Source of the DNA: Alphaproteobacteria bacterium
Lineage (GTDB): Bacteria > Pseudomonadota > Alphaproteobacteria > JANQMY01
Reading direction: 5' to 3'
DNA length: 64,000 nucleotides
NCBI GenBank assembly: GCA_028289425.1
Contig: JANQPL010000001.1
Coordinates: 194,503-258,502 of the forward strand
Below the pieces are notes generated by a model, which was not told the DNA's origin, made no database searches, and was given only the letters and a program-made list of their open reading frames with translations. Positions 39,192 to 61,036 of the stretch are shown here, one piece after another. The number at the start of each line of letters is the position of its first letter. Position 1 is the first letter of the stretch. Made by a program: the position numbers and the translations under genes.

Positions 39192-39207
39192 TTTGACGCG
39201 CGTCAAA
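39192..39207. promoter_or_regulatory. Perfect 16-bp palindrome TTTGACGCGCGTCAAA upstream of the regulator gene (lux-box-like operator candidate)
   Basis: Read directly; about 80 nt upstream of the 39117 start codon on the coding strand side. Confidence 0.4.
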
Positions 39208-39272
39208 GTTGAGTTTGAGAGCTTGTCACATGACTGTGACCATCAGCAAATTTCTTGGTTAATTGAATGGGC

Positions 39273-41795: not shown

Positions 41796-41950
41796 AAGGT
41801 TTAGGAATGCCCAGCCTACCGCCCCCACGCATCATCAAAATTGGGTACGTCGTGGCGCTATTTGGGCCGGAACCTTGCGATCGACGCCAAAAATGATTGC
41901 CGTGCTTACTTCCAGCCGAGGCCCGAAACGCTAACAAAGCTTTTCGGCGG

Positions 41951-44755: not shown

Positions 44756-46219
44756 TTAGCAGGTCATTCCGTCCGCATGATGTGACTTCGCGCCGGATTC
44801 TTTTCGCGCGACGGCAAGCAGCTTTAACGTTTGGGCGTGATGGCTCTTTGAGATCCGGTAGCGGGTAAGGAACAAAAAGGACACCACGCCGCCCAGCGCA
44901 AGCACCGGGCCATCGACAATCGCTAGGGCAGTGAGCGTGTCCGCCGGTACTTGTCCAACGGTCGCGTTGACAGGAAAGTTGATGAGATCAAGCGCGATCC
45001 CGCCAATCCAGGTCCCCACTCCAATTAGGGCCTTGCCGGCAAAGGCATAAATGCCGAAGAAGATTCCTTCCTGGCGGCGCCCGGTCTGCAATTCGTGTTC
45101 GTCAATGCAATCGGCGACCATAGAGCCACCCAACACCGTTGTCGCCGCGCCGCCAAATCCGGCAAGCGCAGCCATGACCATCAGTGCAGGAAATGTTGTT
45201 GCATGGTCGCCCGGCGAAAGAATGCCGACCAGAGCAAGACAAGGCGGCAAGATTACGAAGCCGCACCACCACGCCAGGCCCAGCATGAAGGCCGGTTTCT
45301 TCTCCACATAGCGCGTCAAATAGGCCCAGACGGGAATCGACAATGCCGTCGACAGAGTTCCAACAATCACCAGTGAAAAGTTCTGATCGGAACTTAACTG
45401 CCAATAGTGGATGTTCATGTGCAGGAGCAATGTGTATCGCGCACCATTGACTGCATAAAAGCCGAGTATGCCCAGGAACAAGGCCAAGAAGTTTGGCTGC
45501 GTCAGCGCTTCCGCGTTCTCGCGCAGAAAGCCGCCAATGTCTAACCGGCGGCTGGATGGCGCCTGCGATAAAAAGGGGACTCGCGATAAGGTTCCAAAAA
45601 CGCTGACCAGGACCAAAAGAGTCATCATGACGCCCAGTCCGAGTGCGAAGGGAAAGTAGGCATCGGCGTTGAGCTGGCCATTGGGATGTTGCACGCTGTC
45701 GGCAAAGAAATAGCCAAAGCCGATCGCCATGGCGGCCACGTACCCAAACAAAGAGAAGAACTGTCTGACCGCCACGATGCGATTTCGTTCATGGTAACCG
45801 GACGCAAGTTCGGCGCCCAATGCCATATGCGGGACGTAAAACAACGTCAGCGCGAGCCTGGCTGCGATGTTGAAAGCACACAACCAGCCGAACAACCAGA
45901 AAGAAGAGAGGTCGGCAGGCGGCGAAAAAAGCGCAACCACGCTGACCGCAAGCGGCACGGCGGATGCAAGCATCAAGGGATGGCGCCGGCCCCAAGAGGT
46001 TTTAAGGCGGTCTGAAATGGCGCCCGCAAGCGGGTCCGAGATGGCATCGAACACAAGACCGATAAGCAGCGCCGTACCGGCAAGCCCCGCACCAAGCCCG
46101 AGAACCTGATTGTAATAGAAGAAAAGGAAGACGGAAAAGGAACTGGTAAACAATCCTTCCGCCATCTGACCAATGCCGTAAGCGTATCGCTCTCGGAGGG
46201 TCAGCGGGACTTGGTGCAC
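44756..46219 (-). CDS. MFS transporter, GPH (glycoside-pentoside-hexuronide:cation symporter)-like
   Basis: YAYGIGQMAEGLFTSSFSVFLFFYYNQVLGL...DAISDPLAGAISDRLKTSWGRRHP is typical of the GPH family; GTG start at 46219. Confidence 0.7.
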   Translation of the reverse strand: MHQVPLTLRERYAYGIGQMAEGLFTSSFSVFLFFYYNQVLGLGAGLAGTALLIGLVFDAISDPLAGAISDRLKTSWGRRHPLMLASAVPLAVSVVALFSPPADLSSFWLFGWLCAFNIAARLALTLFYVPHMALGAELASGYHERNRIVAVRQFFSLFGYVAAMAIGFGYFFADSVQHPNGQLNADAYFPFALGLGVMMTLLVLVSVFGTLSRVPFLSQAPSSRRLDIGGFLRENAEALTQPNFLALFLGILGFYAVNGARYTLLLHMNIHYWQLSSDQNFSLVIVGTLSTALSIPVWAYLTRYVEKKPAFMLGLAWWCGFVILPPCLALVGILSPGDHATTFPALMVMAALAGFGGAATTVLGGSMVADCIDEHELQTGRRQEGIFFGIYAFAGKALIGVGTWIGGIALDLINFPVNATVGQVPADTLTALAIVDGPVLALGGVVSFLFLTRYRISKSHHAQTLKLLAVARKESGAKSHHADGMTC

Positions 46220-46227
46220 GATGAGGT

Positions 46228-47226
46228 CTATCGTGCGTGTTCGGCGAGAAACGCGACCGTCGCCTCGCGAACTTGATCGCCCTCAATACCCCACCAGCAG
46301 AAGTGGCCGCCCGCCCGAACGGTAACAAACACGCCATCGGGCCGCTGCTGTTGAACATAGGTCTGATGGTCGATGGGCACATCCGTATCGACCGGACTGT
46401 GCGCGGATAAGAGCGGAGTTTCTGGATGCCGGAAGGGGCCGTACCATTCGCCCTCGGTCAATTCCAATTCGTACATCATGCCCTCAAAGCGGACGCTCAT
46501 GGGTGTAATGGACTTGATGAACTCGATGAGCTCCTGCTTCCGCCCCAACACCACCAGCTCTTCATGGATAATCTTCTTGGTCTCTTCCTCGCTCAGATCT
46601 GCCTCGGTACGGAGGAACTCGGTCATGAGGGACGCGGGAAAGAAGCGGGCCGAGCGCGCCATTGACCACGAGATCAAATCTTTGACACTTGCCGGCGATT
46701 GCAGCACCGCTCTTGCAAGCGGCGTGTCCGCCGTATCCGGGTTGGGAACGTAGGTCTTGGAGATGGCCGACCAGAGAATGAGACTCTTCGACTTGTGGGG
46801 ATACCGGTCGGCAAAGAAGATTGCACCGGGCCCGCCCATGGAAACGCCAAGAATATGGGCTTTATCGATTCCTAGAGCATCAAGGAGGGCGGCCGCATCG
46901 TCCGCTTGCGTTTCAAACGTCACATCGTCGGTTAGCGGCCGGCCGAGATAGCCTTCGCGGTTGACCGATATCAGTCTGTATCCTTTGTCCACAAGCCACT
47001 GAAAATGCGTGACACCATCGGGCCCAGATCCGCCACCATAAATGTAAAGAATGGGTTCGCCCAACCCAATGTCCGTGTACGAAAGTGTTGTGCCACCCAC
47101 CTCTACCGTCTTGAGCTGTTTCTTTATCGAGGCCAAATGGGCGCTTCGCCACCACAAGAAATCAATCGTGATCGCAAGCAGTAGAAGAACGGCCACCACT
47201 CCGATTATCGTTATGACTTTGATCAT
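46228..47226 (-). CDS. Membrane-anchored alpha/beta hydrolase
   Basis: N-terminal TM helix (MIKVITIIGVVAVLLLLAITI), then the alpha/beta-hydrolase core with GVSMGG nucleophile elbow. The long upstream ORF extension to 47775 overlaps the SDR and is rejected. Confidence 0.65.
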   Translation of the reverse strand: MIKVITIIGVVAVLLLLAITIDFLWWRSAHLASIKKQLKTVEVGGTTLSYTDIGLGEPILYIYGGGSGPDGVTHFQWLVDKGYRLISVNREGYLGRPLTDDVTFETQADDAAALLDALGIDKAHILGVSMGGPGAIFFADRYPHKSKSLILWSAISKTYVPNPDTADTPLARAVLQSPASVKDLISWSMARSARFFPASLMTEFLRTEADLSEEETKKIIHEELVVLGRKQELIEFIKSITPMSVRFEGMMYELELTEGEWYGPFRHPETPLLSAHSPVDTDVPIDHQTYVQQQRPDGVFVTVRAGGHFCWWGIEGDQVREATVAFLAEHAR

Positions 47227-47306
47227 TCGGTGCCTCCTGGCGCTTCCGTTTTTATTTGCTTTGAAACCCTCACCGGCGAAGGGCCCGCTACGCCCATAGG
47301 CCTGAC

Positions 47307-48071
47307 CTACGAACTGTCGGCGGATGGCGCATTCTCCACACCCCCAAAGGCCGACCAACCGCCATCCACGGGCAGAACGGCCCCTGTGATAAAACTTGCA
47401 AGTTCCGATAGGAGGAATACGGCGGCATTGGCGACTTCTTGTGCTTTGCCAGGCCGTCCCAGCGGGACGCGCTGTTCGATGGCGCTGATGCCGTAAGGCA
47501 CCTGATCGGTCATCACATCCGCCATGGGCGCCTGGATAAATCCGGGAGCGATTGCGTTGACACGAATTCCGAAGCGAGACAGATCGCAGGCCATTGTCCG
47601 CGTCATCATGATGACACCGGCTTTGCTGACGCCATAGGCATTGGACGCGGGCAACCCGACCATGCCGGCGACGGAGGCGATGTTTACGATCGCACCGCCT
47701 TCCTGCATGCATTTGGCGCCATCCCGGGACATCAGAAAGACGCTCTGCAGATTGACATCGATAACGCGCCGCCAATCATCAGCTGACTGACGCATGGTTC
47801 CCTTTATCGGTTCCGCGACCCCCGCATTGTTCACAAGCCCGTCCAATCCGCCCAGAATGTCCGCCGCTTCTTGAACCACACCATTGACCGATGCTTCGTC
47901 GGACACGTCGCCTGCAACGGCGCCCGCCACATCACTTTCGGTTTTCGCTTGGGCAATTCGCTCTTCGTCGATGTCATTGATCACCACGCGCGCGCCAGAT
48001 TTTACCAACGACACCGCGATCGCAAACCCAATGCCGCCGGCGGCGCCGGTGACCAAAACGCGCCTCCCCAT
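47307..48071 (-). CDS. SDR family oxidoreductase
   Basis: RRVLVTGAAGGIGFAIA cofactor motif; 254 aa. Confidence 0.8.
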   Translation of the reverse strand: MGRRVLVTGAAGGIGFAIAVSLVKSGARVVINDIDEERIAQAKTESDVAGAVAGDVSDEASVNGVVQEAADILGGLDGLVNNAGVAEPIKGTMRQSADDWRRVIDVNLQSVFLMSRDGAKCMQEGGAIVNIASVAGMVGLPASNAYGVSKAGVIMMTRTMACDLSRFGIRVNAIAPGFIQAPMADVMTDQVPYGISAIEQRVPLGRPGKAQEVANAAVFLLSELASFITGAVLPVDGGWSAFGGVENAPSADSS

Positions 48072-48255: not shown

Positions 48256-48269
48256 AGTACAAATGTACA
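48256..48269. promoter_or_regulatory. TGTACA-NN-TGTACA operator-like site (AGTACAAATGTACA)
   Basis: One of eight or more copies of a two-hexamer palindromic motif between 48.2 and 58 kb; in the divergent SDR/hydrolase promoter region. Confidence 0.5.
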
Positions 48270-48342
48270 GGTTTAATTTTTCAAAGTCTCGACAGACTGA
48301 CGACAACAACGTCGGCAGGATATCGAAGTGTGAGAACGACTA

Positions 48343-49278
48343 ATGTCCGATTCAAATAGACAAGGCACGCAGCAATGGATTGCCTCTGCCGACGATGGAG
48401 CAATCTGCTTCTATACGTGGCACCCGAAAGCATCGACGCCGTGTGGCATCGTTCAAATGGTTCATGGCAGCATCGACCATGCCCGTCGATATGGACAGTT
48501 TGCGGAGTATCTAGCCGCGGCCGGCTACATCGTCGTCGCCAGCGACAATCGCGGCCACGGGAATGCCGCTAGCATCTCCGGAGGCCTTGGTGCTACGGGC
48601 CCGGACGCATGGAACGGCATCGTTGGCGATCTGGATTCATTGTCCAGACACATTCAAGACAAATACCCTTCCTTGCCTTTGTACCTGGTCGGCCACGCCA
48701 TGGGCACGCTGCTGGTCCTCGACTATGCCCAACGGTACGGGGATCGATTGTCGGGCATGGTTCTAAGTTCACCCTTGCCGCCAACGGAAAACGTCGACCA
48801 GGTGATCGGCGCGCTTGAGGCCTATGTGTCCGAGCATGGCCCGGATGTGCCGGCGGAAGGAATCGAAGACAGCATTGCCAAGTACAATGCCCCTTTTGAA
48901 CCGGCAACATCGAAGTGGGCCTGGTTCACGCGGGATCCGGAACAGCTGCTTGCCTACGAAGAAGATCCTCAATGTGGCTTTGTGGAGCGGGTTGGGTTCT
49001 TGCTGGAGCTTTCCCGCGCGGAAAAAAAGATCCGGCAAACGGAGAATATGGCCAAGATTCCGCGCGGCCTGCCGGTGCTCATCTTGGCCGGACAAGCCAA
49101 CCCGGTGGTGGAATTTGGCCAACTGGCGCTGACGATGAAGAGCATGCTGGAGCAAGAAAAATTCACCGACGTCACGAGCAAAATCTATACCGACGCCCGT
49201 CACCAGCTTCTTCATGAAGTCAATCGCGAAGAGGTGTACCAAGACATTCTTGAGTGGATTGAGCAGCGCGCCTCATAG
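48343..49278 (+). CDS. Alpha/beta hydrolase (lysophospholipase/monoacylglycerol-lipase-like, Hydrolase_4 type)
   Basis: HGSIDHARRY...GHAMGT nucleophile elbow; 311 aa. Confidence 0.7.
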   Translation: MSDSNRQGTQQWIASADDGAICFYTWHPKASTPCGIVQMVHGSIDHARRYGQFAEYLAAAGYIVVASDNRGHGNAASISGGLGATGPDAWNGIVGDLDSLSRHIQDKYPSLPLYLVGHAMGTLLVLDYAQRYGDRLSGMVLSSPLPPTENVDQVIGALEAYVSEHGPDVPAEGIEDSIAKYNAPFEPATSKWAWFTRDPEQLLAYEEDPQCGFVERVGFLLELSRAEKKIRQTENMAKIPRGLPVLILAGQANPVVEFGQLALTMKSMLEQEKFTDVTSKIYTDARHQLLHEVNREEVYQDILEWIEQRAS

Positions 49279-49337
49279 CTGAAATCGCCACGCCCAAACC
49301 TGCCATTCCCCTTGCAATCCTCATCTTATCAAATTAC

Positions 49338-49351
49338 TGTACAAATGTACG
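49338..49351. promoter_or_regulatory. TGTACA-NN-TGTACA operator-like site (TGTACAAATGTACG)
   Basis: About 90 nt upstream of the ligase start. Confidence 0.5.
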
Positions 49352-49439
49352 GTTTTTAGAAATGAAGTGCCGGCCGCTGCGCCGACTGAGCACGCAACAA
49401 GAGCGCCTGCCGGATAAGCCAACGGCGAAGGAGAGAGCA

Positions 49440-51086
49440 ATGGCCAATAAGTTCATTCCGGCGGACGTGAAGTTGGAGCAACGCACCGTTGGACAGTTGA
49501 TCGCCAAGCAAGCCAACGAACTCGGCGACAAAACGTTCGTGCAAACGACGGATGGCGAGACATTGAGCTATCGGGACCTGCATCTAAGGTCCAATCAACT
49601 CACCCACGGGCTGGCGGATCTGGGAATCGAACACCAAGAACCCGTTCTAGTCATGATGCCCGACACAACGGACTTTCTTGTCATATGGGCGGCGCTGGGC
49701 AAACGCGGTGCGATCCAGGTGCCTATCAATTTGGCTTACCAAAAGAGCATTCTAAGACGGATCTGCAATGACTCGACCGCAAAGTCCGTCTTCGTGGACA
49801 TCCAGTTTCTAGACCGGCTCGAAGAGATCTGCGATGATTTGGACGCCTTGGAAACACTCATCTTGTATTCAGAGGAACACGGTGAGGATTTTTCAGGCGA
49901 TCTACCGCCAAAACTCGCCAAACGCTGCAAGTCCATAAAGTTCAGCACACTTTTCAGCGAATCGACGGCCGATTTTGAGAACGGCCCGCGGTTCAATGAT
50001 TTGCTGGCGATCATGTACACGTCGGGAACCACGGGCGCTTCGAAAGGCGTGTGCATTACCCAGTCTCATGCGTTTTGTTATGCGGACTCCGCGGCAGAGA
50101 TCTTTCATTTGTGCTCGTCCGACCGGTTCTATTCCTCCGGCCTTCCGCTGTTTCATGTCGGCTGCCAATGGGCTGTCTGCTATGCGTCGCTGATCTATGG
50201 CGGCACCGTGGTTCTCAGACAGGGTTACAGCAACGATAATTTTTGGCCCGACGTGAAGAACTTTGACTGTACCGTCGTGTTCTTGTTGGGGGCCATCGCC
50301 AATTTCTTGTGGCAGCAACCGAGTTCCCCGAGCGATCGTGACACATCGCTGACCAAAGTGGGCATGTTTCCGGTGATACCGGAGCATGAGGCATTCTGCG
50401 AACGGTTCGGCGTGGAAATCGCTGCGGCCTATGCCAGCACGGAGTGCCCGACCCCGATGATCCATCACTTCGGTGATCCCCTGCCAAACAACCAATGTGT
50501 TGGCTTTCCAACGGGCAAGTATGACGTCGCAATCTTCGATGAAGATGACCGCGAATGTGACACCGGCACCATGGGAGAGATTTGTGTCCGGCCAAAAGGG
50601 CCTTGGGAGATCCTCTCAGGATATTGGAGGCAGCCCGAATACACGGCAAAAGCCTTCCGAAATCTTTGGTACCACACGGGCGACGCCGGTTATCAAGACA
50701 ATGACGGTCGATTCTATTTTGTCGACCGCCTGACCGACTCCATGCGCCGGAGGGGCGAAAACATTTCCTCTATGGAAGTGGAAGACGAAATCAATCAGCA
50801 CCCGGATGTGCTGGAGTGTGCCGTGTTTCCCGTATGGGACGAACACACAGAACAAGAGGTTATGGCGGTCGTCACGCCGAAACCGGGCACGACCATAGAC
50901 CCGAAAGCTCTGATCGCTTTCCTCAATGAGCGCATGGCCTATTTCATGATCCCGCGCTATCTGGATTTTCAGGACGACATCCCCAAAACACCCACAGGCA
51001 AAATCCAAAAATTCAAACTGCGCGAGCACGGCATCACGCCAACCACTTGGGACCGGGTTGAAGCAGGTGTGAAGTTATCACGCTGA
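49440..51086 (+). CDS. AMP-dependent acyl-CoA synthetase/ligase
   Basis: IMYTSGTTGASKGVCITQSH motif; GGAGAGAG RBS before the ATG at 49440. Confidence 0.8.
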   Translation: MANKFIPADVKLEQRTVGQLIAKQANELGDKTFVQTTDGETLSYRDLHLRSNQLTHGLADLGIEHQEPVLVMMPDTTDFLVIWAALGKRGAIQVPINLAYQKSILRRICNDSTAKSVFVDIQFLDRLEEICDDLDALETLILYSEEHGEDFSGDLPPKLAKRCKSIKFSTLFSESTADFENGPRFNDLLAIMYTSGTTGASKGVCITQSHAFCYADSAAEIFHLCSSDRFYSSGLPLFHVGCQWAVCYASLIYGGTVVLRQGYSNDNFWPDVKNFDCTVVFLLGAIANFLWQQPSSPSDRDTSLTKVGMFPVIPEHEAFCERFGVEIAAAYASTECPTPMIHHFGDPLPNNQCVGFPTGKYDVAIFDEDDRECDTGTMGEICVRPKGPWEILSGYWRQPEYTAKAFRNLWYHTGDAGYQDNDGRFYFVDRLTDSMRRRGENISSMEVEDEINQHPDVLECAVFPVWDEHTEQEVMAVVTPKPGTTIDPKALIAFLNERMAYFMIPRYLDFQDDIPKTPTGKIQKFKLREHGITPTTWDRVEAGVKLSR

Positions 51087-51141
51087 ACAGAGCGTGTCGC
51101 AGTGTGAGGTCTCAGAGGCCACTTAAAGAAAGAACGAGAAT

Positions 51142-51924
51142 ATGGCGGAAAAGCAAATTCACTATGCCAAGGACGGGCACATCGCGCGCATCACCATCGA
51201 CCGGCCGGAAGCCTTGAACGCCATGACCGGTGACATGATCAGAGAGTTTCGCGCCGCCGCCGAAGAAGCAGAACGCGACCCAAATGTGCGCGTCGTCATT
51301 TTGTCGGGTGTCGGAGATGCCTTCTGTGCGGGATATGACATCCGTGAGTTTCAAGCGATGAAAGACCTCAACGGCATCTGGGAAGTTGGGATGTTGATGA
51401 CCGGCACGTGGTCCTTCGTGCGCAAGATGAGCAAGCCGACCATTGCGGCGATCGGCGGCTCAACGGCCGGTGGCGGGTTTGAGCTTTCGCTGTGCTGTGA
51501 CCTGCGCATCGCCAAGAAGAGCGCCAAAATCGGGTCGTGCGAAGTGCGTATGCACCAGCCAACCACGAACGCCTCGAGCCAGTTGCTGGCGCGATTGATC
51601 GGGGAAAGCAAGGCCAAGGAACTTGCCTTGACCGGCGATGTCTGGGACGCGGAAACAGCCGCCCAGTTCGGCCTAGTTAATGTGGCGGTGGACGACGAAG
51701 CGTTTGAGCAAACGGTGAAAGAGTGGGCTGAGCGTATTGCCAGCCGATCGCCGGTCGCTGTCAGCATCACGAAGAGCCTGTTCGAAAGTTTACGTCTGGT
51801 TTCGGCAGATACCGCAAGCTCGCTCGAAGAGGAAGCCGCGATCAAATGCTATCTGATGGACGATATGAAGGAAGGGTTTGACGCGTTTCTCAATAAGCGC
51901 CCGCCCGTTTGGAAGGGCCAATAG
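51142..51924 (+). CDS. Enoyl-CoA hydratase/isomerase (crotonase), canonical order
   Basis: GDAFCAGYDIREF and GGSTAGGGFELSLCCDLRIA oxyanion-hole motifs; 260 aa. Confidence 0.8.
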   Translation: MAEKQIHYAKDGHIARITIDRPEALNAMTGDMIREFRAAAEEAERDPNVRVVILSGVGDAFCAGYDIREFQAMKDLNGIWEVGMLMTGTWSFVRKMSKPTIAAIGGSTAGGGFELSLCCDLRIAKKSAKIGSCEVRMHQPTTNASSQLLARLIGESKAKELALTGDVWDAETAAQFGLVNVAVDDEAFEQTVKEWAERIASRSPVAVSITKSLFESLRLVSADTASSLEEEAAIKCYLMDDMKEGFDAFLNKRPPVWKGQ

Positions 51925-52154
51925 TCGGCATCATGACGAGAACCGGCGCCGGATGCAGTAATTCTAATCCTATTAGCGTTAAGCCAGGGGACAATGTCGG
52001 TTTCCCCTTGAAGCCCTTTTGAAACAGTTTCCTCCCGGCAGCGCTTGCGCGCTGCTTTCTCTGATCGTCAGCCTCTGTCGCTCTTATTCGCGATACGGGC
52101 TGACGATTTTTTTTTGACCCTCGGCAAACCTGACTGGCTCAAATTTTTCAAACT

Positions 52155-52168
52155 GGTACAAATGTGCA
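52155..52168. promoter_or_regulatory. TGTACA-NN-TGTACA operator-like site (GGTACAAATGTGCA)
   Basis: First of three sites in the 460-nt region upstream of the second TonB receptor. Confidence 0.45.
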
Positions 52169-52324
52169 ACACATGGGCTTTAAACCCTGGATGTCCGGAC
52201 GTTACCGACATCCTATCAAGAATCGGGGGCCTATACTTAACAATGCCCTCCACAATGGAGCCGCTACAGCGGCCCTATGGCGAACAGAGCTCTACTCGGC
52301 CAAAGCATGAAGAATTTGAAAAAC

Positions 52325-52365
52325 AGTACAAATGTGCTAAAACATGAAAACCGTACAAACGTACA
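52325..52365. promoter_or_regulatory. Two adjacent operator-like sites (AGTACAAATGTGCT and CGTACAAACGTACA)
   Basis: Tandem sites 50-90 nt upstream of the TonB receptor start. Confidence 0.5.
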
Positions 52366-52417
52366 AATTATATTTTGAACGACGCTATTGGCGTCGGCCA
52401 TGAAAAGGGGGAGACCA

Positions 52418-54718
52418 ATGGGTTCTGGGAGAGTTTCGCTTCGGTCAATTCTGATGACCTCAGCGGCATTGACCATATTCGGCATGCCGGCTGAGATAGC
52501 CTCAGCCGCTTTGGATGAGATTGTCATAACGGCAGCTCACAGGGAACAGTCGCTCCAAGACGTCCCGATTGCAGTGACAGCAATCGACTCTGTGGAACTC
52601 GACAGACTCAATGCCATTTCCTATGCGGATCTTTCCGGCTACCTACCGAACTTTTCTTTCAACTCCCTGACAAGCGTGGGTTTTGTGGTTCCCGTCATTC
52701 GGGGCGTCGGCCTGACCGGATCCGGTGAAAGCGCGATCTCCAACAATCCGACAACCGGATTCTACATCGACGGCGTTTACATTAGAGCCGCGGGCGGCAA
52801 TCTGTTCAATGTTGTGGATGTGGAGCGGGTGGAGATTCTGCGCGGACCTCAGGGCACGCTTTACGGCCGCAACACGCTGGGCGGTGTGATCAATATCATT
52901 ACCAAGAAACCGGGAGATGAATTGGACTTCAACGCCCGGGCATCGTACGGCAACTTCAATCGCAAAGACTTCCGTGCGTCAGTGTCAGGCCCCTTGGTAA
53001 CAGACAAGCTGCTGGGGCGCTTTGGCGTGGCATATATCGATCGAGACGGACGTGTTGAGAACAATTTTTCCACACCGGACAGCCGCTTCAATGAGTCGGG
53101 CGCCGACGTGGACGATCTAGACAGTCTCACACTCCGCGGCTCTGCCATCTACAGAGCGACGCCCAATCTGGAATTCACTTTCGCGGGCGACTACAGCAAA
53201 GATAATACCACCTACCCCGGCTATAACGTTGAGGATGGTAGCCTTGACCTATCCGCGTTCTTCCTAAGCGGCACCTATGCCGACACGGACGGCGACGTCC
53301 ACGAAGTGTCCTACAATTCGAACAATGAAGAAATGGCGAGAAATTGGGGCGCGTCGCTGACGGGCGAGTGGTCGTCAGGCAACTACCGCGTCGTGTCAAT
53401 CACGGGCTATCGCAACACAATTTTCGAGAATGACAACAGCGACATTGACGGCACGCCCTTCAACATCTTTCAGCAATTTCTGCGGCTCGAAGAAGAAGCG
53501 GTGAGCCAGGAGTTGAGATTTCACTATGAAGACGACCGGCTCGATACCGTTGCGGGCGTTTACTACTACGGCTATCAGGGCCAGCAGGACTCCACACTCG
53601 ACATTTTCGGCATCGAACGGGAGTTGGGATATCCCCTTTCGGTGTTTGGCGCCCCGGTGCTCAGTACGGGAATCTCAAGGGCGGTGGTGAATACAGAGAC
53701 GGACACCTTTTCCGCATTCGGGCACGCCGGCTACAGAATTCTTCCGGACTTGCGCATCGAAGCCGGCCTAAGGTACACAACCACCGATGTGGAATTCCAA
53801 CGCCCCGTCTCGCGCAGCGAAATTGGAGGTCTTGCAAATCCGTTCTATGACGGCTCGAACCCCTTTGATGAAGTGCCGGCCGGTGTTGCATTGGCATCCA
53901 ATGGCGGCGAAATACCGCTCGTGGAAGACACCTTCTCGAAGGTGACGCCAAAAGTCGGCATTAGTTATGACGTGAATGAAGAAACTCTCGTCTACGCCAC
54001 ATGGTCTAAGGGCTTTCGGGAAGGCGGATTTGCGACGCGACCATCCAGCGGCAACGGGGCGTTCGATGCCGAAAACCTGACCGCCTATGAGGTAGGCGCC
54101 AAATCCGACCTGTTCGATCGCAGGCTGAGACTTAACCTTGCAGCCTATTGGTACAGATATAAAGATCAGCAAGCGGAAGAGACGTCGCTTGGCGGCCCCG
54201 GCTTCTTTGTCGACATCACCAATTCCGGGCGGTCGAGAGCACGGGGCTTTGAACTTGAATTCGTGACAAATCCGGCGGATTTCTTTTCACTTCAGGGATC
54301 TTTCGGTTGGCAGGAAACCAAGTTCCTGGAACTGGATACGGGCCTTGGTGGCAACCTTGCCGGCAATGAATTCCCTCGGGCACCGAAATACAGCGCATCG
54401 CTCATCCCAACGTTCTACTACAATGTGCCCAATGCCGGCACGCTGTCGTTACGCGGCGAATGGACGTATCAGTCCGACGAGTTTGACGGCTTGACCAATG
54501 ACCGGAATCTTGTGCTTGAACGCCGCAATGTGTTTGGTGCGTCAATGTCATTTGAAAACATCGATCAGGATTGGTCGCTCACCCTGTGGGGCAAGAACCT
54601 GACCGACGAAGAATATGCAATCCGCGTCGTCGATCTAAGTGGCTTCTTTGGATATCGGTTAAGAAGCTACGGCACGCCACGGGAATTTGGGTTCACCGCA
54701 ACCTATTCCTACAACTAG
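52418..54718 (+). CDS. TonB-dependent outer-membrane receptor (second copy)
   Basis: GGGGGAG RBS, signal peptide, plug start LDEIVITAAHREQSLQDVPIAVTAI, C-terminal barrel; about 766 aa. Confidence 0.8.
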   Translation: MGSGRVSLRSILMTSAALTIFGMPAEIASAALDEIVITAAHREQSLQDVPIAVTAIDSVELDRLNAISYADLSGYLPNFSFNSLTSVGFVVPVIRGVGLTGSGESAISNNPTTGFYIDGVYIRAAGGNLFNVVDVERVEILRGPQGTLYGRNTLGGVINIITKKPGDELDFNARASYGNFNRKDFRASVSGPLVTDKLLGRFGVAYIDRDGRVENNFSTPDSRFNESGADVDDLDSLTLRGSAIYRATPNLEFTFAGDYSKDNTTYPGYNVEDGSLDLSAFFLSGTYADTDGDVHEVSYNSNNEEMARNWGASLTGEWSSGNYRVVSITGYRNTIFENDNSDIDGTPFNIFQQFLRLEEEAVSQELRFHYEDDRLDTVAGVYYYGYQGQQDSTLDIFGIERELGYPLSVFGAPVLSTGISRAVVNTETDTFSAFGHAGYRILPDLRIEAGLRYTTTDVEFQRPVSRSEIGGLANPFYDGSNPFDEVPAGVALASNGGEIPLVEDTFSKVTPKVGISYDVNEETLVYATWSKGFREGGFATRPSSGNGAFDAENLTAYEVGAKSDLFDRRLRLNLAAYWYRYKDQQAEETSLGGPGFFVDITNSGRSRARGFELEFVTNPADFFSLQGSFGWQETKFLELDTGLGGNLAGNEFPRAPKYSASLIPTFYYNVPNAGTLSLRGEWTYQSDEFDGLTNDRNLVLERRNVFGASMSFENIDQDWSLTLWGKNLTDEEYAIRVVDLSGFFGYRLRSYGTPREFGFTATYSYN

Positions 54719-54809
54719 TAAAATCAGAGAACACAAAATTTGCGCCGGCGCCTCACAAAAGCGTGCCGGCGTTTTTGTGACCTATCGATCGGCGCCGGGT
54801 CCGGACCGG

Positions 54810-55451
54810 TCAACGCTTGGGATTCGTCTTTGGGAAAAGAGACTGAAAGTCGTAGTCGAATTTGCTGCGCGTTCGTGCAAGTTCGGAATCAACCTTACCC
54901 CGCGCCATCAAACACAGAGTTTTCCCAAGGACAGAGCATTGCAGTATTTGACCATCCAGCGCCGGATCCTTTGAGCCGGCCTGCTCTGCCGTTTTTCGCC
55001 AATAGGCCATGCGAACTTTGTGGACATCGCCAATTGCGGCGCTCAGTTCAGGAGATCGGAAAGCCTCAAACGTCAATTCGAACGCCGCCATAGTTTGTTC
55101 TTTGTGTTCCGTGGACTCTCTTATGAGGCGGGTGCTGATCCGATCGATGATTTCCGCTCGCGAGGCCTTCTGGTCTTTGTCGTTTCTGTTGGATTCGCGC
55201 CAGCGGGCGACCTCTTGCTCGTAGAGCAGCTGATAGGCCTTTTCCAGAATCTCATCCCGCGACTCGAAATGATATGTGGTCACGGCGATGGACACATCGG
55301 CCTCCTTCGCGACTGAGCGATGCGTAACGCCCGTGGCACCTTGCCGCGAAAGTAGCCGCAACGCAGCCGCAACACATTTGTCATGGGTAGCCTGACCCCG
55401 CTGCTGGCCTTCGGACCGTTCGACGCTTTTCTTTGGACGACCCTTAGTCAT
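54810..55451 (-). CDS. TetR/AcrR family transcriptional regulator
   Basis: HTH AALRLLSRQGATGVTHRSVAKEADVSIAVTTYHFESRDEIL; likely start MTKGRPKK. Confidence 0.75.
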   Translation of the reverse strand: MTKGRPKKSVERSEGQQRGQATHDKCVAAALRLLSRQGATGVTHRSVAKEADVSIAVTTYHFESRDEILEKAYQLLYEQEVARWRESNRNDKDQKASRAEIIDRISTRLIRESTEHKEQTMAAFELTFEAFRSPELSAAIGDVHKVRMAYWRKTAEQAGSKDPALDGQILQCSVLGKTLCLMARGKVDSELARTRSKFDYDFQSLFPKTNPKR

Positions 55452-56064
55452 CAAACATACTCTCGACCAGTCGGGTATAGGTTTGGCGCAAGCTTCGGGC
55501 GCCATATTTCTCTTGACCGGCAGCAAGGGCGGACATCTCGTAACCAATCATGCAATCCACCAGGCGACGGGCATCTTCTCGCGGATTGCGGCTTTTGCAC
55601 CTCTCCAGAACATCTTCGTAGTAATCGCAGGTATCCGAATACCATTTGTTGGCAGTTTCCTGGAGCGCCGGATTGCGCGCCGCTTCCAACATGAACTCGT
55701 ACCAGGCGCAAATCACATGCCGATCATCCTTTTTTCGGAATGTGTGCCGCGAGACCCGAATGAGAAGTTCGGCGAGACCCTTCTTCGTGTAATCGTCACC
55801 CATGGAGGTTCTCAATCTTGTCCGAACATTCGCGATGTAGATTTCGATGAGCCAATCAAATGCGGCGGACAGTAATTCAGCTTTGTTCCTAAAATGATAG
55901 GTCGTGGACGCTAGAGAAACGCCGGCCAGTTCGGCCACACGCCGGTGCGTGACGGATTTCGCCCCCTCGGCGCCAAGCAACTGAGTGGCAGCGCTTAAGA
56001 TTGCCTCTCGGGTTAGGCGTGCGCGATCCTGTTGGGGAATTCTGACAACTGACGGACTGTTCAT
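55444..56064 (-). CDS. TetR/AcrR family transcriptional regulator (second, overlapping by about 8 nt)
   Basis: HTH AATQLLGAEGAKSVTHRRVAELAGVSLASTTYHFRNKAELL; likely start MNSPSVV. Confidence 0.75.
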   Translation of the reverse strand: MNSPSVVRIPQQDRARLTREAILSAATQLLGAEGAKSVTHRRVAELAGVSLASTTYHFRNKAELLSAAFDWLIEIYIANVRTRLRTSMGDDYTKKGLAELLIRVSRHTFRKKDDRHVICAWYEFMLEAARNPALQETANKWYSDTCDYYEDVLERCKSRNPREDARRLVDCMIGYEMSALAAGQEKYGARSLRQTYTRLVESMFDD

Positions 56065-56100
56065 GAAGCAAGTGTACTTTTGTTGATGAGACTTGAAAAC

Positions 56101-56113
56101 TGTACAAATACAC
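56101..56113. promoter_or_regulatory. Operator-like site (TGTACAAATACAC, one degenerate half), plus the degenerate GTGTACTTTTGTTGA at about 56072
   Basis: Immediately upstream of the second TetR gene (autoregulation candidate). Confidence 0.4.
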
Positions 56114-56353
56114 CAGTTTGATGAAAGGGGTCTTTGCTGCGTCGAATTGTCAAGATCCACCACATAGGCAGCTTCGATTTGGTTACGTTACGGCAGCCAT
56201 GTGAAAGATTGCGAATGCGACACGTAGCCCCTTAAGCGTTTCGACAGCCTCCTTTTTGATCCCCACGCGGCCCATTGACGTTCAGCGCGGCGCTGCAAAT
56301 TCGCCGGCATGCTGAGGCGCCAAAGCCTTGAATTAGCCTTCTTGATCATATAC

Positions 56354-56367
56354 CGTACAAATGTACA
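56354..56367. promoter_or_regulatory. TGTACA-NN-TGTACA operator-like site (CGTACAAATGTACA)
   Basis: About 30 nt upstream of the FAD oxidoreductase start. Confidence 0.5.
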
Positions 56368-56393
56368 GTTCTTGAGCAAGGGAACGAAAGAGT

Positions 56394-57686
56394 ATGTTGT
56401 ATGACGTGGCCGTATTGGGGGCAGGAGTGGCCGGTGCGGCAGCCAGTTACGCACTTCGCGATCTGAATGTCGCCCTAATCGAAGCGGAGAACTTTGTTGG
56501 TGGTCGGACATATTCCGAGAAGCTTGGAGATAACCTCTGGGCGAATTACGGCGCGGGATACTTCTCTTCGGACAAGACAACCATTATGGAGTTGGCCGAT
56601 GAGGTCGGTGCAGAACTTGTCCGTTTCGATGACCGGGCGATGACCGGCGATTTCATGAACGGTCTGTTTGATAAAGACGATGTAAAGCAAATCCGGGACA
56701 TCAAACGGCGGATTGCCGATGAGCAAAGACACACGCGAGACCCAGCAGATACATCCCTAGACGATGTTTCCTTTGCCGATTGGATGGGACCTGTTCGGCC
56801 AAACGTCAAGCTATACTGGGATGCTTGGTGCGAAACCATGAGCGGTCCGCCCGAAGAGGTCTCACTCTACGGAGTGCTGCTACTCCACGGCACCGACCGC
56901 ACCTCTGCGTTCAACGACACAGAACCAGATCATGACCCGCGCGGCAATCTTGTCGCCAAAGGTGGCAACAGCATGATTGCTCAAAAACTGGTTGAAGCAA
57001 GCGGTGTCGCGCTGCGCCTGGGAACGAGAATCGTACAGGTTACCTCTACGGAGGAAGGTTACCTGGTTGCCGCCGAGTCGCCCGACGGGTCGGTCACCTT
57101 TCAAACCCGAACCGTCGTTTCTGCCCTTACGGCACCCTCAGTTCTGAGCGTTATGCCCGAATTACCGGTGCAACGGATCGAAGCGCTAAATGCCATTGAA
57201 TATGGGCGCATTCTCGGCATCCCCGTTGTGGTCGGGCCTAAAGGCATGAACGAGCACTATGTACCAAAGGCGACCTACCGGCCCGATGCGGTCTATTGCC
57301 AAAGCGAGTTCCTATTGAGGTCGCCGACGGACCTTGACAAAGACGGCGCCTACTTTGTGTGCCAAGTATATGACCGCGCGAGCCGTGTTATTTGGGACGA
57401 CGATGATGAATCGATTCGGGCGGGCGCCTACGCAGCCTTTATCGCCAAATTTCCCGAGCTCAAATATCGCGTCCTGAAAATCGGTGTCCGCCGCTGGCCG
57501 ACCGGTGTTTGCAAATACAACCTTGGCCGCATGAAAGTCATGCCGGAGGTCGCAAAACCGATAGGCGGCATCAGCTTCTGCGGCGATTACACTTTAACCC
57601 CTCACACGGATGGCGCCGCAAAAAGCGGTTTACGCGCGGCAGAAGAAGCGCGCGCATTCCTGAACGATCAGAAGAGCCCGGAATGA
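56394..57686 (+). CDS. FAD-dependent oxidoreductase (flavin amine-oxidase-like)
   Basis: N-terminal dinucleotide fold DVAVLGAGVAGAAASYAL...EAENFVGGR and C-terminal FCGDYTLTPHTDGAAKSGLRAAEEA. Confidence 0.7.
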   Translation: MLYDVAVLGAGVAGAAASYALRDLNVALIEAENFVGGRTYSEKLGDNLWANYGAGYFSSDKTTIMELADEVGAELVRFDDRAMTGDFMNGLFDKDDVKQIRDIKRRIADEQRHTRDPADTSLDDVSFADWMGPVRPNVKLYWDAWCETMSGPPEEVSLYGVLLLHGTDRTSAFNDTEPDHDPRGNLVAKGGNSMIAQKLVEASGVALRLGTRIVQVTSTEEGYLVAAESPDGSVTFQTRTVVSALTAPSVLSVMPELPVQRIEALNAIEYGRILGIPVVVGPKGMNEHYVPKATYRPDAVYCQSEFLLRSPTDLDKDGAYFVCQVYDRASRVIWDDDDESIRAGAYAAFIAKFPELKYRVLKIGVRRWPTGVCKYNLGRMKVMPEVAKPIGGISFCGDYTLTPHTDGAAKSGLRAAEEARAFLNDQKSPE

Positions 57687-57943
57687 GAATCACATCGCCA
57701 GTCATCACAATGGATGTGGACATAGAAGAGATCATTGTACGGAACAGCAATATCGTTCTCTCTGGATTTGCCGGTGTTGAGGAGATTGAAGCGCAAGTCT
57801 CGGCGCTGGAGGCAAGATCTTTGATGTTCAAATTGATGCGGATCTCAGTGCTAACCCTACTGGTGCGAAGTTTCTTCGCCCCGAAAGAGTAGCGATACTT
57901 TGAGCCGTGCAGCCTCCGAATTGCCGGCGATGTGACACCTATT

Positions 57944-57957
57944 CGTACATTTGTACA
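57944..57957. promoter_or_regulatory. TGTACA-NN-TGTACA operator-like site (CGTACATTTGTACA)
   Basis: About 70 nt upstream of the molybdopterin oxidoreductase. Confidence 0.5.
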
Positions 57958-58023
57958 AACAGCTATTCCAAGATCTCGAATACACCAATGATCCCTACCC
58001 CAACGACCACTGCGGAGTAAATC

Positions 58024-60246
58024 GTGTCCGATCGGTCTCACAGTATTTGCCGTGTCTGCCACCTGATGTGTCCCATCATCGTCGAGCGCGACGGAAACCG
58101 GATCGAAAAAATCTACGGAGATAAGACCAATCCCGTCTATTTCGGATACACATGCATTAAGGGGCGGCGGCAGCAGGACTACCTGACATCTCCCGAGCGC
58201 CTCAAACATTCCGTCGGCCGGACGGCTTCAGGAGCCTTCGAGCCCCTCTCCTCCTCTGCGGTGATTGAGCAATCAGCGGAACGCATCCGCTCGATTACCG
58301 ATCAATACGGCCCGAAATCGGTCGCACTCTATATCGGCACGCAAGCGGCGCACAATTTGATCACGCGCAATATGGCGTTGGCGTGGATGGAGGCGATCGG
58401 GTCTCCGATGGTGTTCAGCAGCTTGACGATCGACCAGCCCGGCAAAGTAATCGCGCCCGCCTTGCACGGCATATGGCTGGCCGGGCCTTACGCACCGGAA
58501 GAAGCGGATGTGTGGCTGCTTGTGGGAACCAACCCGATGGTGTCAATGCAGGGCGGCCTGCCGATTAATGCAGCACACGGACAAAAAATTCGCCAAAGGG
58601 AAGGCAGAAAGCTCATCGTCATCGATCCGCGCAAAACGGAGAGCGCTAAGGCGGCAGATGTGCACTTGCAGGCCCTACCGGGCTGCGATGCCGAAATTCT
58701 TGCGGCCATGATCCGGGTCATCATCGCTGAGCGTTTGTTTGACCAAGACTTTGTTGACCAAAACGCGTCCGGTTTCCAGACTATCGAGCGTTGCGTGGCG
58801 TCGTTTCATCTAGAAGACGTTGCCCGACGTGCGGGATTGCGTGCTGCGGATATTGAACGCGCGGCGCGGATGTTGGCTCAAGGTAGGACCGGGGGCGTGA
58901 GTTTGGGGACGGGCCCCAACATGTCGGGCCAATCGAATCTAAGCGAATATCTCGGCTTGTGTCTGATGACCTTGTGCGGCCATTGGGTGCGAGCCGGAGA
59001 AAAAGTCCGAAATCCTGGCGTCCTGGTGCGCCGTCTTGACCCGATCGCTCAGGCCTTTCCGCCCTATCCGGCCTGGGGCTTCGGCGAGCAGTTGCGTGTC
59101 AAGGGCTTAGGCAACTCGCTTGCTGGGCTGCCCACCTCAGCACTGGCAGATGAAATACTTCTCGACGGGGAAAGAAAGATCCGGGCCTTGATCAGCCTCG
59201 GCGGAAATCCTTTTTCCGGGTGGCCTGACCAACAAAAGACGCACGAAGCCCTCAATGCGCTCGACCTGTTGATCAGTGTAGATCCGATTATCAGCACCAC
59301 CGGAAAATATGCAGACTATGTTGTGGCACCAAAGATATTTCTGGAAGTTGCCGGTAACACGGCGCTTCAAGAGAGCTATGGCGTTTTTGGACCTGGGTGG
59401 GGGTATCAGGCGCCTTATGCACAGGCGTGCGGGCCGCTGGTTGACCCCCCTCATGGCTCGGACTTGATCGAAGACTGGGAGTTCTTCTATGGCACAGCCC
59501 AAAAACTGGGCCTCCCGCTCAAGTTAAAATCCGCCTCGATACTCGACCAAAAACAAGCAGCAAGATCAGCGCTGGAAGTGGACATGACGGTTAAGCCAAC
59601 CACGGACCGTCTATGGACGGCGGTGCTCGACGGCGCGCCGCTGCCTTTGTCGGAAATCGAGCAGGATGCGCCCGGCCGTCTTTATGACGTTGACGAACAA
59701 TTCGTCAAACCGAAAACACCGGAGTGTACTGACCGTTTGCGTCTTGATGACCCCACAATGCTGCAGGAACTCAGCGGTCTGGTGAGTGGCGAGTGGAACA
59801 TGGCAAATCCATCGCCCTATCTTCTGATCACTTGCCGGCTTCCTGACATCCACAATTCTTCATGGCACGGCGTTGCAGCCCTCAAACGGCGTCATGGCTT
59901 CAATCCCCTATTTGTAAATCCGGAAGATGCAAAAGAGTTGGACGTTACGGACGGTGATTTCGTGGACGTTGAGTCGGATCACGCATCGATTACCGCGATC
60001 GTTCAAGTTTCGGAAGACTTGCGCAGACGGGTGGTTGCCCTTCCCCCCTGTTGGGGCGCACCCCCAATGGGTGAACAAGACCCCCAAACCGTCGGCAGCA
60101 GTGCCGCAAAGCTGATCACCGTCGACAAGCACTTCGATCCGATCACCGGCATTCCAAGAATGAGTGGCGTGCCGGTCCGATTGCGCAAGTTGAAAACCGA
60201 CGCCAAAAAACCAAGCACCAAGGAGAGCACATATGCCGCAGGTTAA
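58024..60246 (+). CDS. Molybdopterin-dependent oxidoreductase (MopB superfamily), cytoplasmic, stand-alone
   Basis: N-terminal 4Fe-4S motif CRVCHLMCPI...YTCIKGRR (C-x2-C-x3-C-xn-C); C-terminal molybdopterin-binding barrel (DVTDGDFVDVES...); no Tat signal; 740 aa. Confidence 0.75.
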   Translation: MSDRSHSICRVCHLMCPIIVERDGNRIEKIYGDKTNPVYFGYTCIKGRRQQDYLTSPERLKHSVGRTASGAFEPLSSSAVIEQSAERIRSITDQYGPKSVALYIGTQAAHNLITRNMALAWMEAIGSPMVFSSLTIDQPGKVIAPALHGIWLAGPYAPEEADVWLLVGTNPMVSMQGGLPINAAHGQKIRQREGRKLIVIDPRKTESAKAADVHLQALPGCDAEILAAMIRVIIAERLFDQDFVDQNASGFQTIERCVASFHLEDVARRAGLRAADIERAARMLAQGRTGGVSLGTGPNMSGQSNLSEYLGLCLMTLCGHWVRAGEKVRNPGVLVRRLDPIAQAFPPYPAWGFGEQLRVKGLGNSLAGLPTSALADEILLDGERKIRALISLGGNPFSGWPDQQKTHEALNALDLLISVDPIISTTGKYADYVVAPKIFLEVAGNTALQESYGVFGPGWGYQAPYAQACGPLVDPPHGSDLIEDWEFFYGTAQKLGLPLKLKSASILDQKQAARSALEVDMTVKPTTDRLWTAVLDGAPLPLSEIEQDAPGRLYDVDEQFVKPKTPECTDRLRLDDPTMLQELSGLVSGEWNMANPSPYLLITCRLPDIHNSSWHGVAALKRRHGFNPLFVNPEDAKELDVTDGDFVDVESDHASITAIVQVSEDLRRRVVALPPCWGAPPMGEQDPQTVGSSAAKLITVDKHFDPITGIPRMSGVPVRLRKLKTDAKKPSTKESTYAAG

Positions 60247-61036
60247 ATCTCACGGACTAGATCTGTTCTATGTGAAGTCAGGGAACGGCCCAGCCCTGGT
60301 ATTCGTACATGGAACTGGCGGCAATTCCATTTTGTGGTTCAAGCAGTTTGAACGCTTTGCCGGGATCCACACCTGCATTGCCTATGATCATCGCGGCTTC
60401 GGCCGATCGTCGGGGCCGGCGGAAAATTTCAAATCCGAGTACTTTGCTGACGATGTCAGAGCCATCCTCGACGCCGAGAACATCTCCAAATGCACCTTGG
60501 TTTGCTCGTCCCTCGGCGGATGGACCGGTGTTAAGTTTGCTCTTCAGTACCCAGATAGGACCGCTGGCCTGGTGATCTGCAATTCGACAGCGTCCGTAGA
60601 CCTGCCTATCGCCATCGAAGCGTGCGAAGCCTCGAAACCTCGTTCGGAAGCGGAAGGCGCCCTGGCCGTGGCCTTTTCGCCCGACTTTATCCAGAACCAA
60701 CCGCTTCTCGTCTACCTCTTCGAGCAAATCCAGATGGCGACACCCGTCGCACACCAACTTGATTGGGAGTTGGTGTATGACCGCATCATGGGCCCTAACA
60801 CGCTAACCAACGTCGAGACGCTCGCCAAGATTTCTTGCCCCTCGTTGCACATTGATGGCGAGCTTGACCGAATTTTTCCCCCTGCCGTCATTGAAGCCGT
60901 GGCCGCTAAGTTCCCCAACTCTCAATTTACCGTCATACCGGATGCTGCCCATTGCCCCTGGATTGAGCAACCTGAAGCATTTAATTCCGTGCTGACTGAA
61001 TTCCTAAACGGAGTCGATTGGCATCGCGCCAAATAG
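60233..61036 (+). CDS. Alpha/beta hydrolase
   Basis: LVFVHGTGGNSILW...CSSLGG elbow; AGGAG RBS; start overlaps the MopB stop by 14 nt. Confidence 0.75.
   Translation: MPQVKSHGLDLFYVKSGNGPALVFVHGTGGNSILWFKQFERFAGIHTCIAYDHRGFGRSSGPAENFKSEYFADDVRAILDAENISKCTLVCSSLGGWTGVKFALQYPDRTAGLVICNSTASVDLPIAIEACEASKPRSEAEGALAVAFSPDFIQNQPLLVYLFEQIQMATPVAHQLDWELVYDRIMGPNTLTNVETLAKISCPSLHIDGELDRIFPPAVIEAVAAKFPNSQFTVIPDAAHCPWIEQPEAFNSVLTEFLNGVDWHRAK

Follow-up and report, generated by a model that had tools for sequence, protein, structure and literature searches.

Repeated TGTACA-WW-TGTACA palindromes as candidate operators of a local catabolic regulon around an overlapping TetR gene pair in an uncultured alphaproteobacterium

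In the genome of an uncultured alphaproteobacterium (GTDB lineage Pseudomonadota; Alphaproteobacteria; JANQMY01; assembly GCA_028289425.1, contig JANQPL010000001.1, positions 194,503 to 258,502), a 64,000-nucleotide stretch of DNA, hereafter the window, carries a palindromic element of the form TGTACA-WW-TGTACA that recurs around two overlapping genes for TetR-family regulators. The most plausible reading, to which we assign a probability of roughly 85%, is that a TetR system of the RcdA/Rv3066 type uses this motif as its operator and keeps about seven transcription units, the tetR pair among them, repressed until a ligand releases the repressor. This reading is supported because the 14-mer is the proven operator of two homologous TetR regulators, because both TetRs of the window share the domain architecture and the helix-turn-helix (HTH) signature of RcdA, because motif and TetR pair co-occur, with the motif enriched, in every orthologous locus, and because the operators form conserved islands within diverged intergenic DNA. 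An earlier sequence-based annotation of the window (the original prediction) had proposed the TetR pair as candidate repressors of a local regulon, and operator identity, family membership, co-occurrence and the conserved islands all argue in favor of that proposal.

Eight copies of a 14-bp element had been reported, at 48256, 49338, 52155, 52325, 52352, 56101, 56354 and 57944, and all eight were found at these positions, confined to 48.2-58.0 kb of the window. With the 14-mer TGTACANNTGTACA as the query for a mismatch search across the 64 kb, four sites (48256, 49338, 56354 and 57944) differ by one mismatch and two (52155 and 52352) by two, so that the asserted 12-of-14 match applies to six sites, while 52325 (AGTACAAATGTGCT) and 56101 (TGTACAAATACACC) match at only 11 of 14 positions. 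Likewise, the repeat is real, but its conserved part is a 12-bp inverted repeat, GTACA-WW-TGTAC, rather than the full 14 bp. Four copies of this core are perfect, three carry one mismatch and one (56102) carries two. A core search allowing up to two mismatches recovered all eight copies and a single weak extra match at 29262.

Recurrence at this density had been called very unlikely to arise by chance, which dinucleotide shuffling bears out. With up to two mismatches, the 14-mer occurs six times against an expectation of 0.79, and none of 100 shuffles reached six; with up to one mismatch, the 12-mer core occurs seven times where 0.44 copies are expected, and the highest count in any of 100 shuffles was 2. 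A position weight matrix (PWM) gives the eight sites scores of 15.8-25.2 bits, values that are circular, the matrix having been trained on the same sites. The next-best match in the 64 kb scores 12.1 bits (26481, in coding DNA), which equals the mean shuffle maximum. No convincing further regulon member was detected by PWM in the remaining 54 kb, where both 29262 (6.2 bits) and 26481 stand at chance level; the former (TGACATATGTAC, 29262-29273, two mismatches) lies in a gap between two genes of about 450 codons each. As to whether the motif is equally frequent in coding DNA or elsewhere, a circumstance that the original prediction had named as speaking against a regulatory role, no comparable site exists outside the cluster within the 64-kb window.

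All eight copies are intergenic under sensible gene models, as had been stated. The open reading frames (ORFs) that formally cover sites, namely 52045-52347(+), 57571-58209(-) and a GTG-extended tetR2 ORF, were set aside as spurious or over-extended; the first is judged spurious because related loci call no gene there, and the extended tetR2 start was rejected because the HTH would then lie too far from the N-terminus by about 35 residues. Seven of the eight sites lie 27-89 nt from the nearest start codon. The site at 48257 lies 74 nt from the hydrolase start and 185 nt from that of the divergent SDR gene, and the three sites before the TonB receptor lie 250, 80 and 53 nt from its ATG. The range of 30-190 nt upstream of a start codon proposed earlier therefore describes most sites, with the exception of 52155 (about 250 nt, TonB receptor) and 56354 (27 nt, FAD oxidase). 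Within the cluster, each intergenic region that bears a promoter contains the motif, including the one before the regulator genes, and the motif has the size of a palindrome bound by a dimer.

The sequence of the element has direct precedents. The TetR-family regulator Rv3066 of Mycobacterium tuberculosis binds a 14-bp palindrome, IR1 (TGTACATTTGTACA), as established by electrophoretic mobility-shift assay and by a DNase I footprint over TTGTGTACATTTGTACACAAAGG, with a dissociation constant of 4.4 nM, one dimer per site and weakened binding in the presence of ligand (PMC3467072). Escherichia coli RcdA (YbjK) recognizes TTGTGTACAttTGTACACAA in its own upstream region, according to genomic SELEX (systematic evolution of ligands by exponential enrichment) and footprinting (PMC3535384); in the E. 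coli K-12 genome sequence, the palindrome is located 21 nt before the rcdA start codon. By sequence comparison, the window motif TGTACA(AA/TT)TGTACA is the same as both published operators. IR1 is identical to the window consensus and differs from the site at 57944 at one outer base only.

The two overlapping TetR genes placed by the original prediction at 54810-56064 are confirmed as tetR2 (55444-56064) and tetR1 (54810-55451), which overlap by 8 nt and whose products are 31% identical. Both proteins match TetR_N (PF00440; 7.8e-8 for TetR1, 8.7e-10 for TetR2) and TetR_C_31 (PF17940; 1.6e-8 and 2.4e-15, respectively), the latter being matched by RcdA at 2e-9. Among PDB entries, TetR2 matches RcdA (2e-8) and Rv3066 (1e-7), and the best characterized relative of TetR1 is Rv3066 (E = 1e-8), with low overall identity between Rv3066 and the window TetRs and an alignment restricted to the N-terminal part. 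In addition, public annotations name many members of this family "YbjK".

The resemblance is concentrated in the DNA-reading head. The HTH of TetR2, VTHRRVAELAGVSLASTTYHF, is identical to that of RcdA at 14 of 21 positions; the corresponding segments of TetR1 and Rv3066 are VTHRSVAKEADVSIAVTTYHF and LSHRRVAAEANVPVGSTTYYF. Both window TetRs have the signature VTHR..A..A.V.....TY.F, whose residues V, T, H, R, A, A, V, T, Y and F are invariant in a five-sequence alignment of TetR1, TetR2, Hyphomonadaceae orthologues and RcdA. A relaxed form, (V/L)(T/S)HR..A..A.V.....TY(H/Y)F, is present in the HMMER alignments to RcdA, Rv3066, 2dg8 and 3kkd, and Rv3066 itself reads SHR.VA.EA.V....TTY.F. Because of this relationship to Rv3066 and RcdA and the invariant reading head, either or both of the window TetRs are credible binders of GTACA-WW-TGTAC.

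Close orthologues of TetR2 are uncommon: among 5.8 billion proteins searched, eleven had an identity of 49% or more, and a close orthologue exists in only 3 species of a 185,579-species genome set. The corresponding loci comprise L001/L009 (an Alphaproteobacteria metagenome-assembled genome (MAG), TetR2 78% identical), L002 (88%), and L003-L008, L010 and L011 (49-55%; Sphingopyxis, Hyphomonadaceae and others); the eight further loci from other assemblies represent about six distinct clusters with TetR identities of 49-88%. Each orthologous locus examined carries the motif together with the overlapping TetR pair, the gene overlap becoming visible in relatives once mis-called starts are corrected, and TetR1 and TetR2 are each conserved in an orthologous series of their own with an intact reading head. 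The motif is enriched in each locus; in seven of the nine loci tested none of 100 dinucleotide shuffles reached the observed count, and in L006 and L010 one of 100 did. A comparative search upstream of orthologous clusters, which had been suggested as a check, thus finds the motif recurring with the TetR pair in every locus. Outside this set, a metagenome scan with a TetR2 alignment returned relatives at no more than 34% identity over most of their length, or higher over the HTH alone, and a TetR2 query against a plasmid collection gave best matches of at most about 38% identity and no annotated orthologous cluster.

In L001 and L002 the operators occupy the same positions as in the window, except for the Mo-enzyme site discussed below. 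Alignments of intergenic regions with these relatives (TetR2 identity 78-88%) show that the operators and adjacent short -35-like boxes are invariant, while the surrounding DNA has diverged and contains many indels. The more distant clusters differ in gene content, including a beta-transaminase-like aminotransferase, a thiolase, a FadB-like protein, and SBF and MFS_2 transporters (the transporters belonging to the sphingomonad and Hyphomonadaceae clusters). In these clusters the motif stands in divergent regions before the tetR pair, the TonB receptor, transporters, and amine-metabolizing and beta-oxidation genes, and in L003, L007, L008, L010 and L011 it lies 6-60 nt 5' of the tetR pair. As a separate observation, a one-mismatch copy (GTACAAATGTAA) lies within the tetR2 coding region of L001 (10459-10470); it has no counterpart in the window and is probably due to chance.

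Promoter hexamers near the operators were read manually; they are weaker than consensus and conserved in two or three genomes. The hydrolase would be served by TTGCCA-17-TACAAA, with the -10 inside the operator, and the site at 48257 is conserved in L001 together with the TTGCCA box. For the ligase the reading is TTGCAA-17-TACTGT, and site 49339 is likewise conserved in L001 with its TTGCAA box. Before the FAD oxidase, CTTGAA-16-TATACC places the start of the operator one base past the -10, and the block CTTGAA-N16-TATACnGTACAAATGTACAG at site 56355 is conserved in three genomes. The TonB receptor has TTGAAA-16-TAAAAC, whose spacer contains one operator and which is followed by another 8 nt further on. 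On the tetR strand, a -10-like TACAGT overlaps the operator at 56102, whose block GAAAACTGTACAnATACAC is kept in L001 and L002 and whose position is like that of the operator of RcdA itself. As hypotheses drawn from sequence, these hexamer readings would fit a repressor better than an activator.

Two further features of these regions deserve mention. The block ACTGGTACAAATGTGCAACA at the distal TonB site (52156) is invariant in three genomes, and the distance from this site to the next operator is 170, 170 and 171 bp (window, 52156-52337; L001, 13718-13899; L002, 4421-4603), with poor conservation of the DNA in between. This constant spacing could reflect DNA looping or a second promoter; an Rfam scan of the whole window gave no match and hence no riboswitch or small RNA in the long TonB leader. 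In front of tetR2, the block AGTGTACTTT (56071-56080), 7-16 nt 5' of the ATG, is invariant in the window, L001 and L002. It resembles the RcdA half-box (TTGTGTACA) and occupies the expected position of a ribosome-binding site; it may be an extra half-site.

In the proposed mechanism, one or both of the co-expressed TetRs would bind GTACA-WW-TGTAC as dimers, with two homodimers of identical DNA specificity as the likeliest arrangement and a heterodimer as a possibility. About seven transcription units would have promoters that the sites overlap or adjoin: SDR, hydrolase and MFS_2 transporter; Hydrolase_4; acyl-CoA ligase and ECH; the TonB receptor, with three sites; tetR2-tetR1; FAD amine oxidase and the 69-codon ORF; and Mo-enzyme and hydrolase. 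Without inducer, these units would be repressed by promoter occlusion. A substrate or intermediate of the pathway would bind the C-terminal domain and release the repressor, whereupon the uptake, catabolic and regulator genes would be switched on, the last under negative autoregulation. Binding, the sign of regulation, the overlap with promoters and the nature of the ligand are points that we infer. A TetR repressor beside a lipid-type catabolic cluster, with several palindromic operators before operons for uptake and beta-oxidation-like steps and with autoregulation, is familiar from the KstR/KstR2 and FadR/PsrA type, which differs in TetR subfamily and operators and whose substrates are known.

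Several observations weigh against this interpretation. A sigma-70 consensus scan of 47.9-58.2 kb detected no promoter at any operator. The site nearest tetR2, at 56102, is the weakest of the eight, with two mismatches, and the Mo-enzyme site at 57945 is absent from L001, the closest complete relative. Furthermore, most distant TetR_C_31 homologues (about 30% identity) have no motif near their genes, and because of this the TGTACA-WW-TGTACA specificity is a property of a sub-group and not of the whole Pfam family. Upstream DNA of these homologues (19 kb) contains six matches, 6.7 times the background rate, and in a subset from Thermoleophilaceae MAGs the motif lies 10-75 bp 5' of the gene. Finally, the E. 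coli K-12 annotation lists RcdA as a dual regulator, so that repression is not guaranteed.

This last point leads to the possibility that the TetR pair binds the sites but acts as an activator or dual regulator, in the way that RcdA activates csgD (PMC3535384). At its distance of about 250 nt from the TonB receptor start, the distal site at 52156 would more typically serve activation or DNA looping. Nevertheless, most sites lie 27-89 nt before a start codon, next to or inside conserved -35/-10-like boxes, which is the classical position of a repressor, and repression is the mode of action of Rv3066 and of most TetRs that control neighboring catabolic or efflux genes (PMC3467072); activation is accordingly considered unlikely. 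Rather less probable still is binding of the motif by an unlinked factor, with the TetR genes as mere neighbors, for which a LexA-like protein or another global regulator would be the candidate. Sequences of the pattern GTAC-N4-GTAC, which the motif fits, are known as LexA boxes of the cyanobacterial type and as targets of some other regulators. Against such a factor, the motif is strictly local: its eight sites fall within 10 kb, and the other 54 kb contain none that is convincing. It also accompanies the TetR pair in genomes where the rest of the cluster genes differ, and homologous TetRs are proven on exactly this sequence. A LexA/SOS box in particular was rejected, the genes downstream being hydrolases, CoA-pathway enzymes, transporters and oxidoreductases and not SOS genes, and the sites being confined to 10 kb of 64.

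TGTACA and GTAC are also palindromes of the restriction type, and short palindromes can spread in the manner of repetitive extragenic palindromic elements; the motif might therefore be a non-regulatory repeat, whether a dispersed palindrome, a restriction-site-related signal or a product of chance. This explanation, the least probable of those considered, is effectively refuted by the footprint alignments and shuffle counts: no shuffle reaches the counts observed in the window, and from genome to genome the sites keep their positions with respect to orthologous genes. With 126 occurrences in the window and 125 expected from a Markov model, GTAC shows neither avoidance nor enrichment overall, and the shared flanks of the sites end within about 18-25 bp.

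Considering the preferred reading of TetR-mediated repression, the presence of two paralogues raises the question of how they share the operators. One speculative answer, which we regard as doubtful, is that they act jointly and not redundantly, either as an obligate heterodimer or as two homodimers with a shared operator and different ligand pockets. In the latter arrangement they would form a two-input AND gate, the shared operators being cleared only when both signals are present. Under either form of joint action, the pair would have been kept in several alphaproteobacterial lineages and would govern a so far undescribed pathway for an amine- or ester-bearing, lipid-like compound, to which a cytoplasmic bis-molybdopterin guanine dinucleotide (bis-MGD) molybdoenzyme and a flavin amine oxidase with its own 69-residue partner would belong. 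Co-expression, as expected of heterodimeric TetR pairs, is indicated by genes that overlap in every locus after start correction. Half-site asymmetry was considered as a hint of heterodimerization and rejected: the deviations in the window all fall in one half-site, but the sphingomonad sites do not follow.

Pairs of homologous TetR regulators on the same DNA sites are known from Streptomyces, where SAV576 and SAV577 compete for them without interacting (PMC4051647) and the members of AvaR1/AvaR2 and of ScbR/ScbR2 pair with one another in heterodimers and with themselves in homodimers (PMC5744401). Those systems are actinobacterial, serve antibiotic production or autoregulator signaling and use other motifs, whereas the genes in the window overlap, with translational coupling, and the pair is kept across several alphaproteobacterial lineages. 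Rv3066 is one regulator gene for one small operon (mmr-rv3066) encoding a multidrug efflux pump (Mmr), with cationic drugs as ligands; the window has two overlapping paralogous regulators, eight operators, and uptake and catabolic targets instead of an efflux pump. RcdA shares the TetR_N + TetR_C_31 architecture and a palindrome (TTGTGTACATTTGTACACAA) just 5' of its own gene, but it is encoded by one gene and acts globally on scattered targets (csgD, stress genes), where it binds tandem half-boxes cooperatively and in many cases activates, in contrast to the compact local regulon of full palindromes around a regulator pair predicted here.

The features of the cluster are collected in Table 1. 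Domain searches agree with the gene labels given in the original prediction, and no equivalog-level name was available in NCBIfam for any cluster protein.

Table 1. Candidate operators, regulator genes and other features of the cluster (window coordinates; operators are given as the 12-bp core)
Feature	Position	Strand	Remarks
MFS_2 transporter	44756-46219	-	8 nt downstream of hydrolase; probable operon member
Alpha/beta hydrolase	46228-47775 (as listed)	-	ORF over-extended into SDR gene; real start probably ~47.2 kb (about 46228-47230)
SDR oxidoreductase	47307-48071	-	First gene of the minus-strand unit running from the 48257 region
Candidate operator GTACAAATGTAC	48257-48268		Perfect core; divergent SDR/hydrolase intergenic region; PWM 23.5
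Hydrolase_4-type alpha/beta hydrolase	48343-49278	+	Monoacylglycerol-lipase/lysophospholipase-like
Candidate operator GTACAAATGTAC	49339-49350		Perfect core; 89 nt 5' of acyl-CoA ligase ATG 49440; PWM 25.2
Acyl-CoA ligase (AMP-binding)	49440-51086	+	548 aa, same length in L001 and L002
Enoyl-CoA hydratase/isomerase (ECH)	51142-51924	+	
Two-hairpin intrinsic terminator, U9 tail	52037-52115	+	Closes ligase-ECH unit; -44.3 kcal/mol, z = -5.6
Distal candidate operator GTACAAATGTGC	52156-52167		250 nt 5' of TonB receptor start, directly past ECH terminator
Candidate operator GTACAAATGTGC	52326-52337		Upstream of TonB receptor, flanked by conserved TTGAAA and TAAAAC boxes
Candidate operator GTACAAACGTAC	52353-52364		53 nt 5' of TonB receptor ATG 52418
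TonB-dependent outer-membrane receptor	52418-54718	+	Start chosen by 766-aa orthologues and GGGGGAGA ribosome-binding site
tetR1	54810-55451	-	213 aa, TetR_N + TetR_C_31; second candidate repressor
tetR2	55444-56064	-	206 aa, TetR_N + TetR_C_31; candidate repressor
Candidate operator GTACAAATACAC	56102-56113		Weakest, 2 mismatches; 37 nt 5' of tetR2 ATG; candidate autoregulatory site
Candidate operator GTACAAATGTAC	56355-56366		Perfect core; 27 nt 5' of FAD amine-oxidase-like gene
Flavin amine-oxidase-family protein	56394-57686	+	Putrescine oxidase match E = 1e-11
Conserved 69-aa ORF	57683-57892	+	ATGA overlap with oxidase stop codon
Candidate operator GTACATTTGTAC	57945-57956		Perfect core, spacer in opposite orientation; 67 nt 5' of Mo-enzyme GTG start
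Molybdopterin (bis-MGD) oxidoreductase	58024-60246	+	N-terminal 4Fe-4S domain; cytoplasmic
Alpha/beta hydrolase	60233-61036	+	Overlaps Mo-enzyme gene end

The start of the minus-strand hydrolase can be compared with its L001 orthologue, a protein of 332 aa whose gene starts about 100 nt after the SDR gene; this hydrolase and the MFS_2 transporter, both downstream of the SDR gene, probably also belong to the regulon. The terminator behind ECH is structurally conserved in L001 and L002. The flavin amine oxidase is a distant relative of putrescine and monoamine oxidases, and orthologues of the 69-aa ORF follow it in L001 (72% identity) and L003 (43%, 84 aa); the ORF matched no Pfam family, and its product may be a small partner subunit. 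Altogether the cluster encodes three or four hydrolases of the alpha/beta type. With low confidence, the gene content points to an amphipathic, ester- or amine-bearing acid or lipid-like compound as the substrate, a suggestion that arises from the gene set of the cluster together with the beta-transaminase of the distant clusters.

The fumonisin (fum) cluster of Sphingopyxis was considered for the sphingomonad and Hyphomonadaceae loci, an idea that arose from their carboxylesterase, class-III aminotransferase, TonB receptor and two regulators. It was rejected, the nearest solved relatives being beta-transaminases and generic carboxylesterases and not FumI or FumD: the L010 aminotransferase is closest to beta-transaminases (6k8h, 3e-81; 2yku; 4ao9), with the aminopentol aminotransferase 6hbs at only 6e-34, and for the L010 carboxylesterase the fumonisin esterase 8s6d ranks fifteenth. 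An IS240-type (DDE_Tnp_IS240) transposase at the cluster edge in these lineages (L003-L005, 872-1576 and equivalents; L010, 5477-6208) hints that the cluster is mobile. L001 carries additional genes: an acyl-CoA dehydrogenase (14129-15289) that separates the ECH gene from the TonB receptor and, past the Mo-enzyme operon, a Rieske oxygenase, a second AMP-ligase, an APH/EcKL-type kinase and a GMC oxidoreductase, all with no operator in front. In the window itself, two large proteins with C-terminal alpha/beta-hydrolase domains (636 and 587 aa) are encoded at 35416-41828 on the minus strand, beside a CS1/Tcf-type pilus usher (851 aa); these genes have no operators and lie outside the regulon.

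The mechanism proposed here is already known, and the current understanding of TetR regulation is unchanged by this system. What is new is a further example of it, a probable multi-operator local catabolic regulon with an RcdA/Rv3066-type operator, and its conserved overlapping regulator pair and uncharacterized pathway are mildly unusual. The analysis provides a regulatory map of an uncharacterized uptake and catabolism cluster in uncultured Alphaproteobacteria, with eight candidate operators, about seven units and two candidate repressors. It would mean that catabolic regulons of a third phylogenetic group also use the TGTACA-WW-TGTACA specificity known from RcdA and Rv3066, and the conserved overlapping TetR pair offers a natural case in which competition, two-signal integration and heterodimerization at one operator may be compared.

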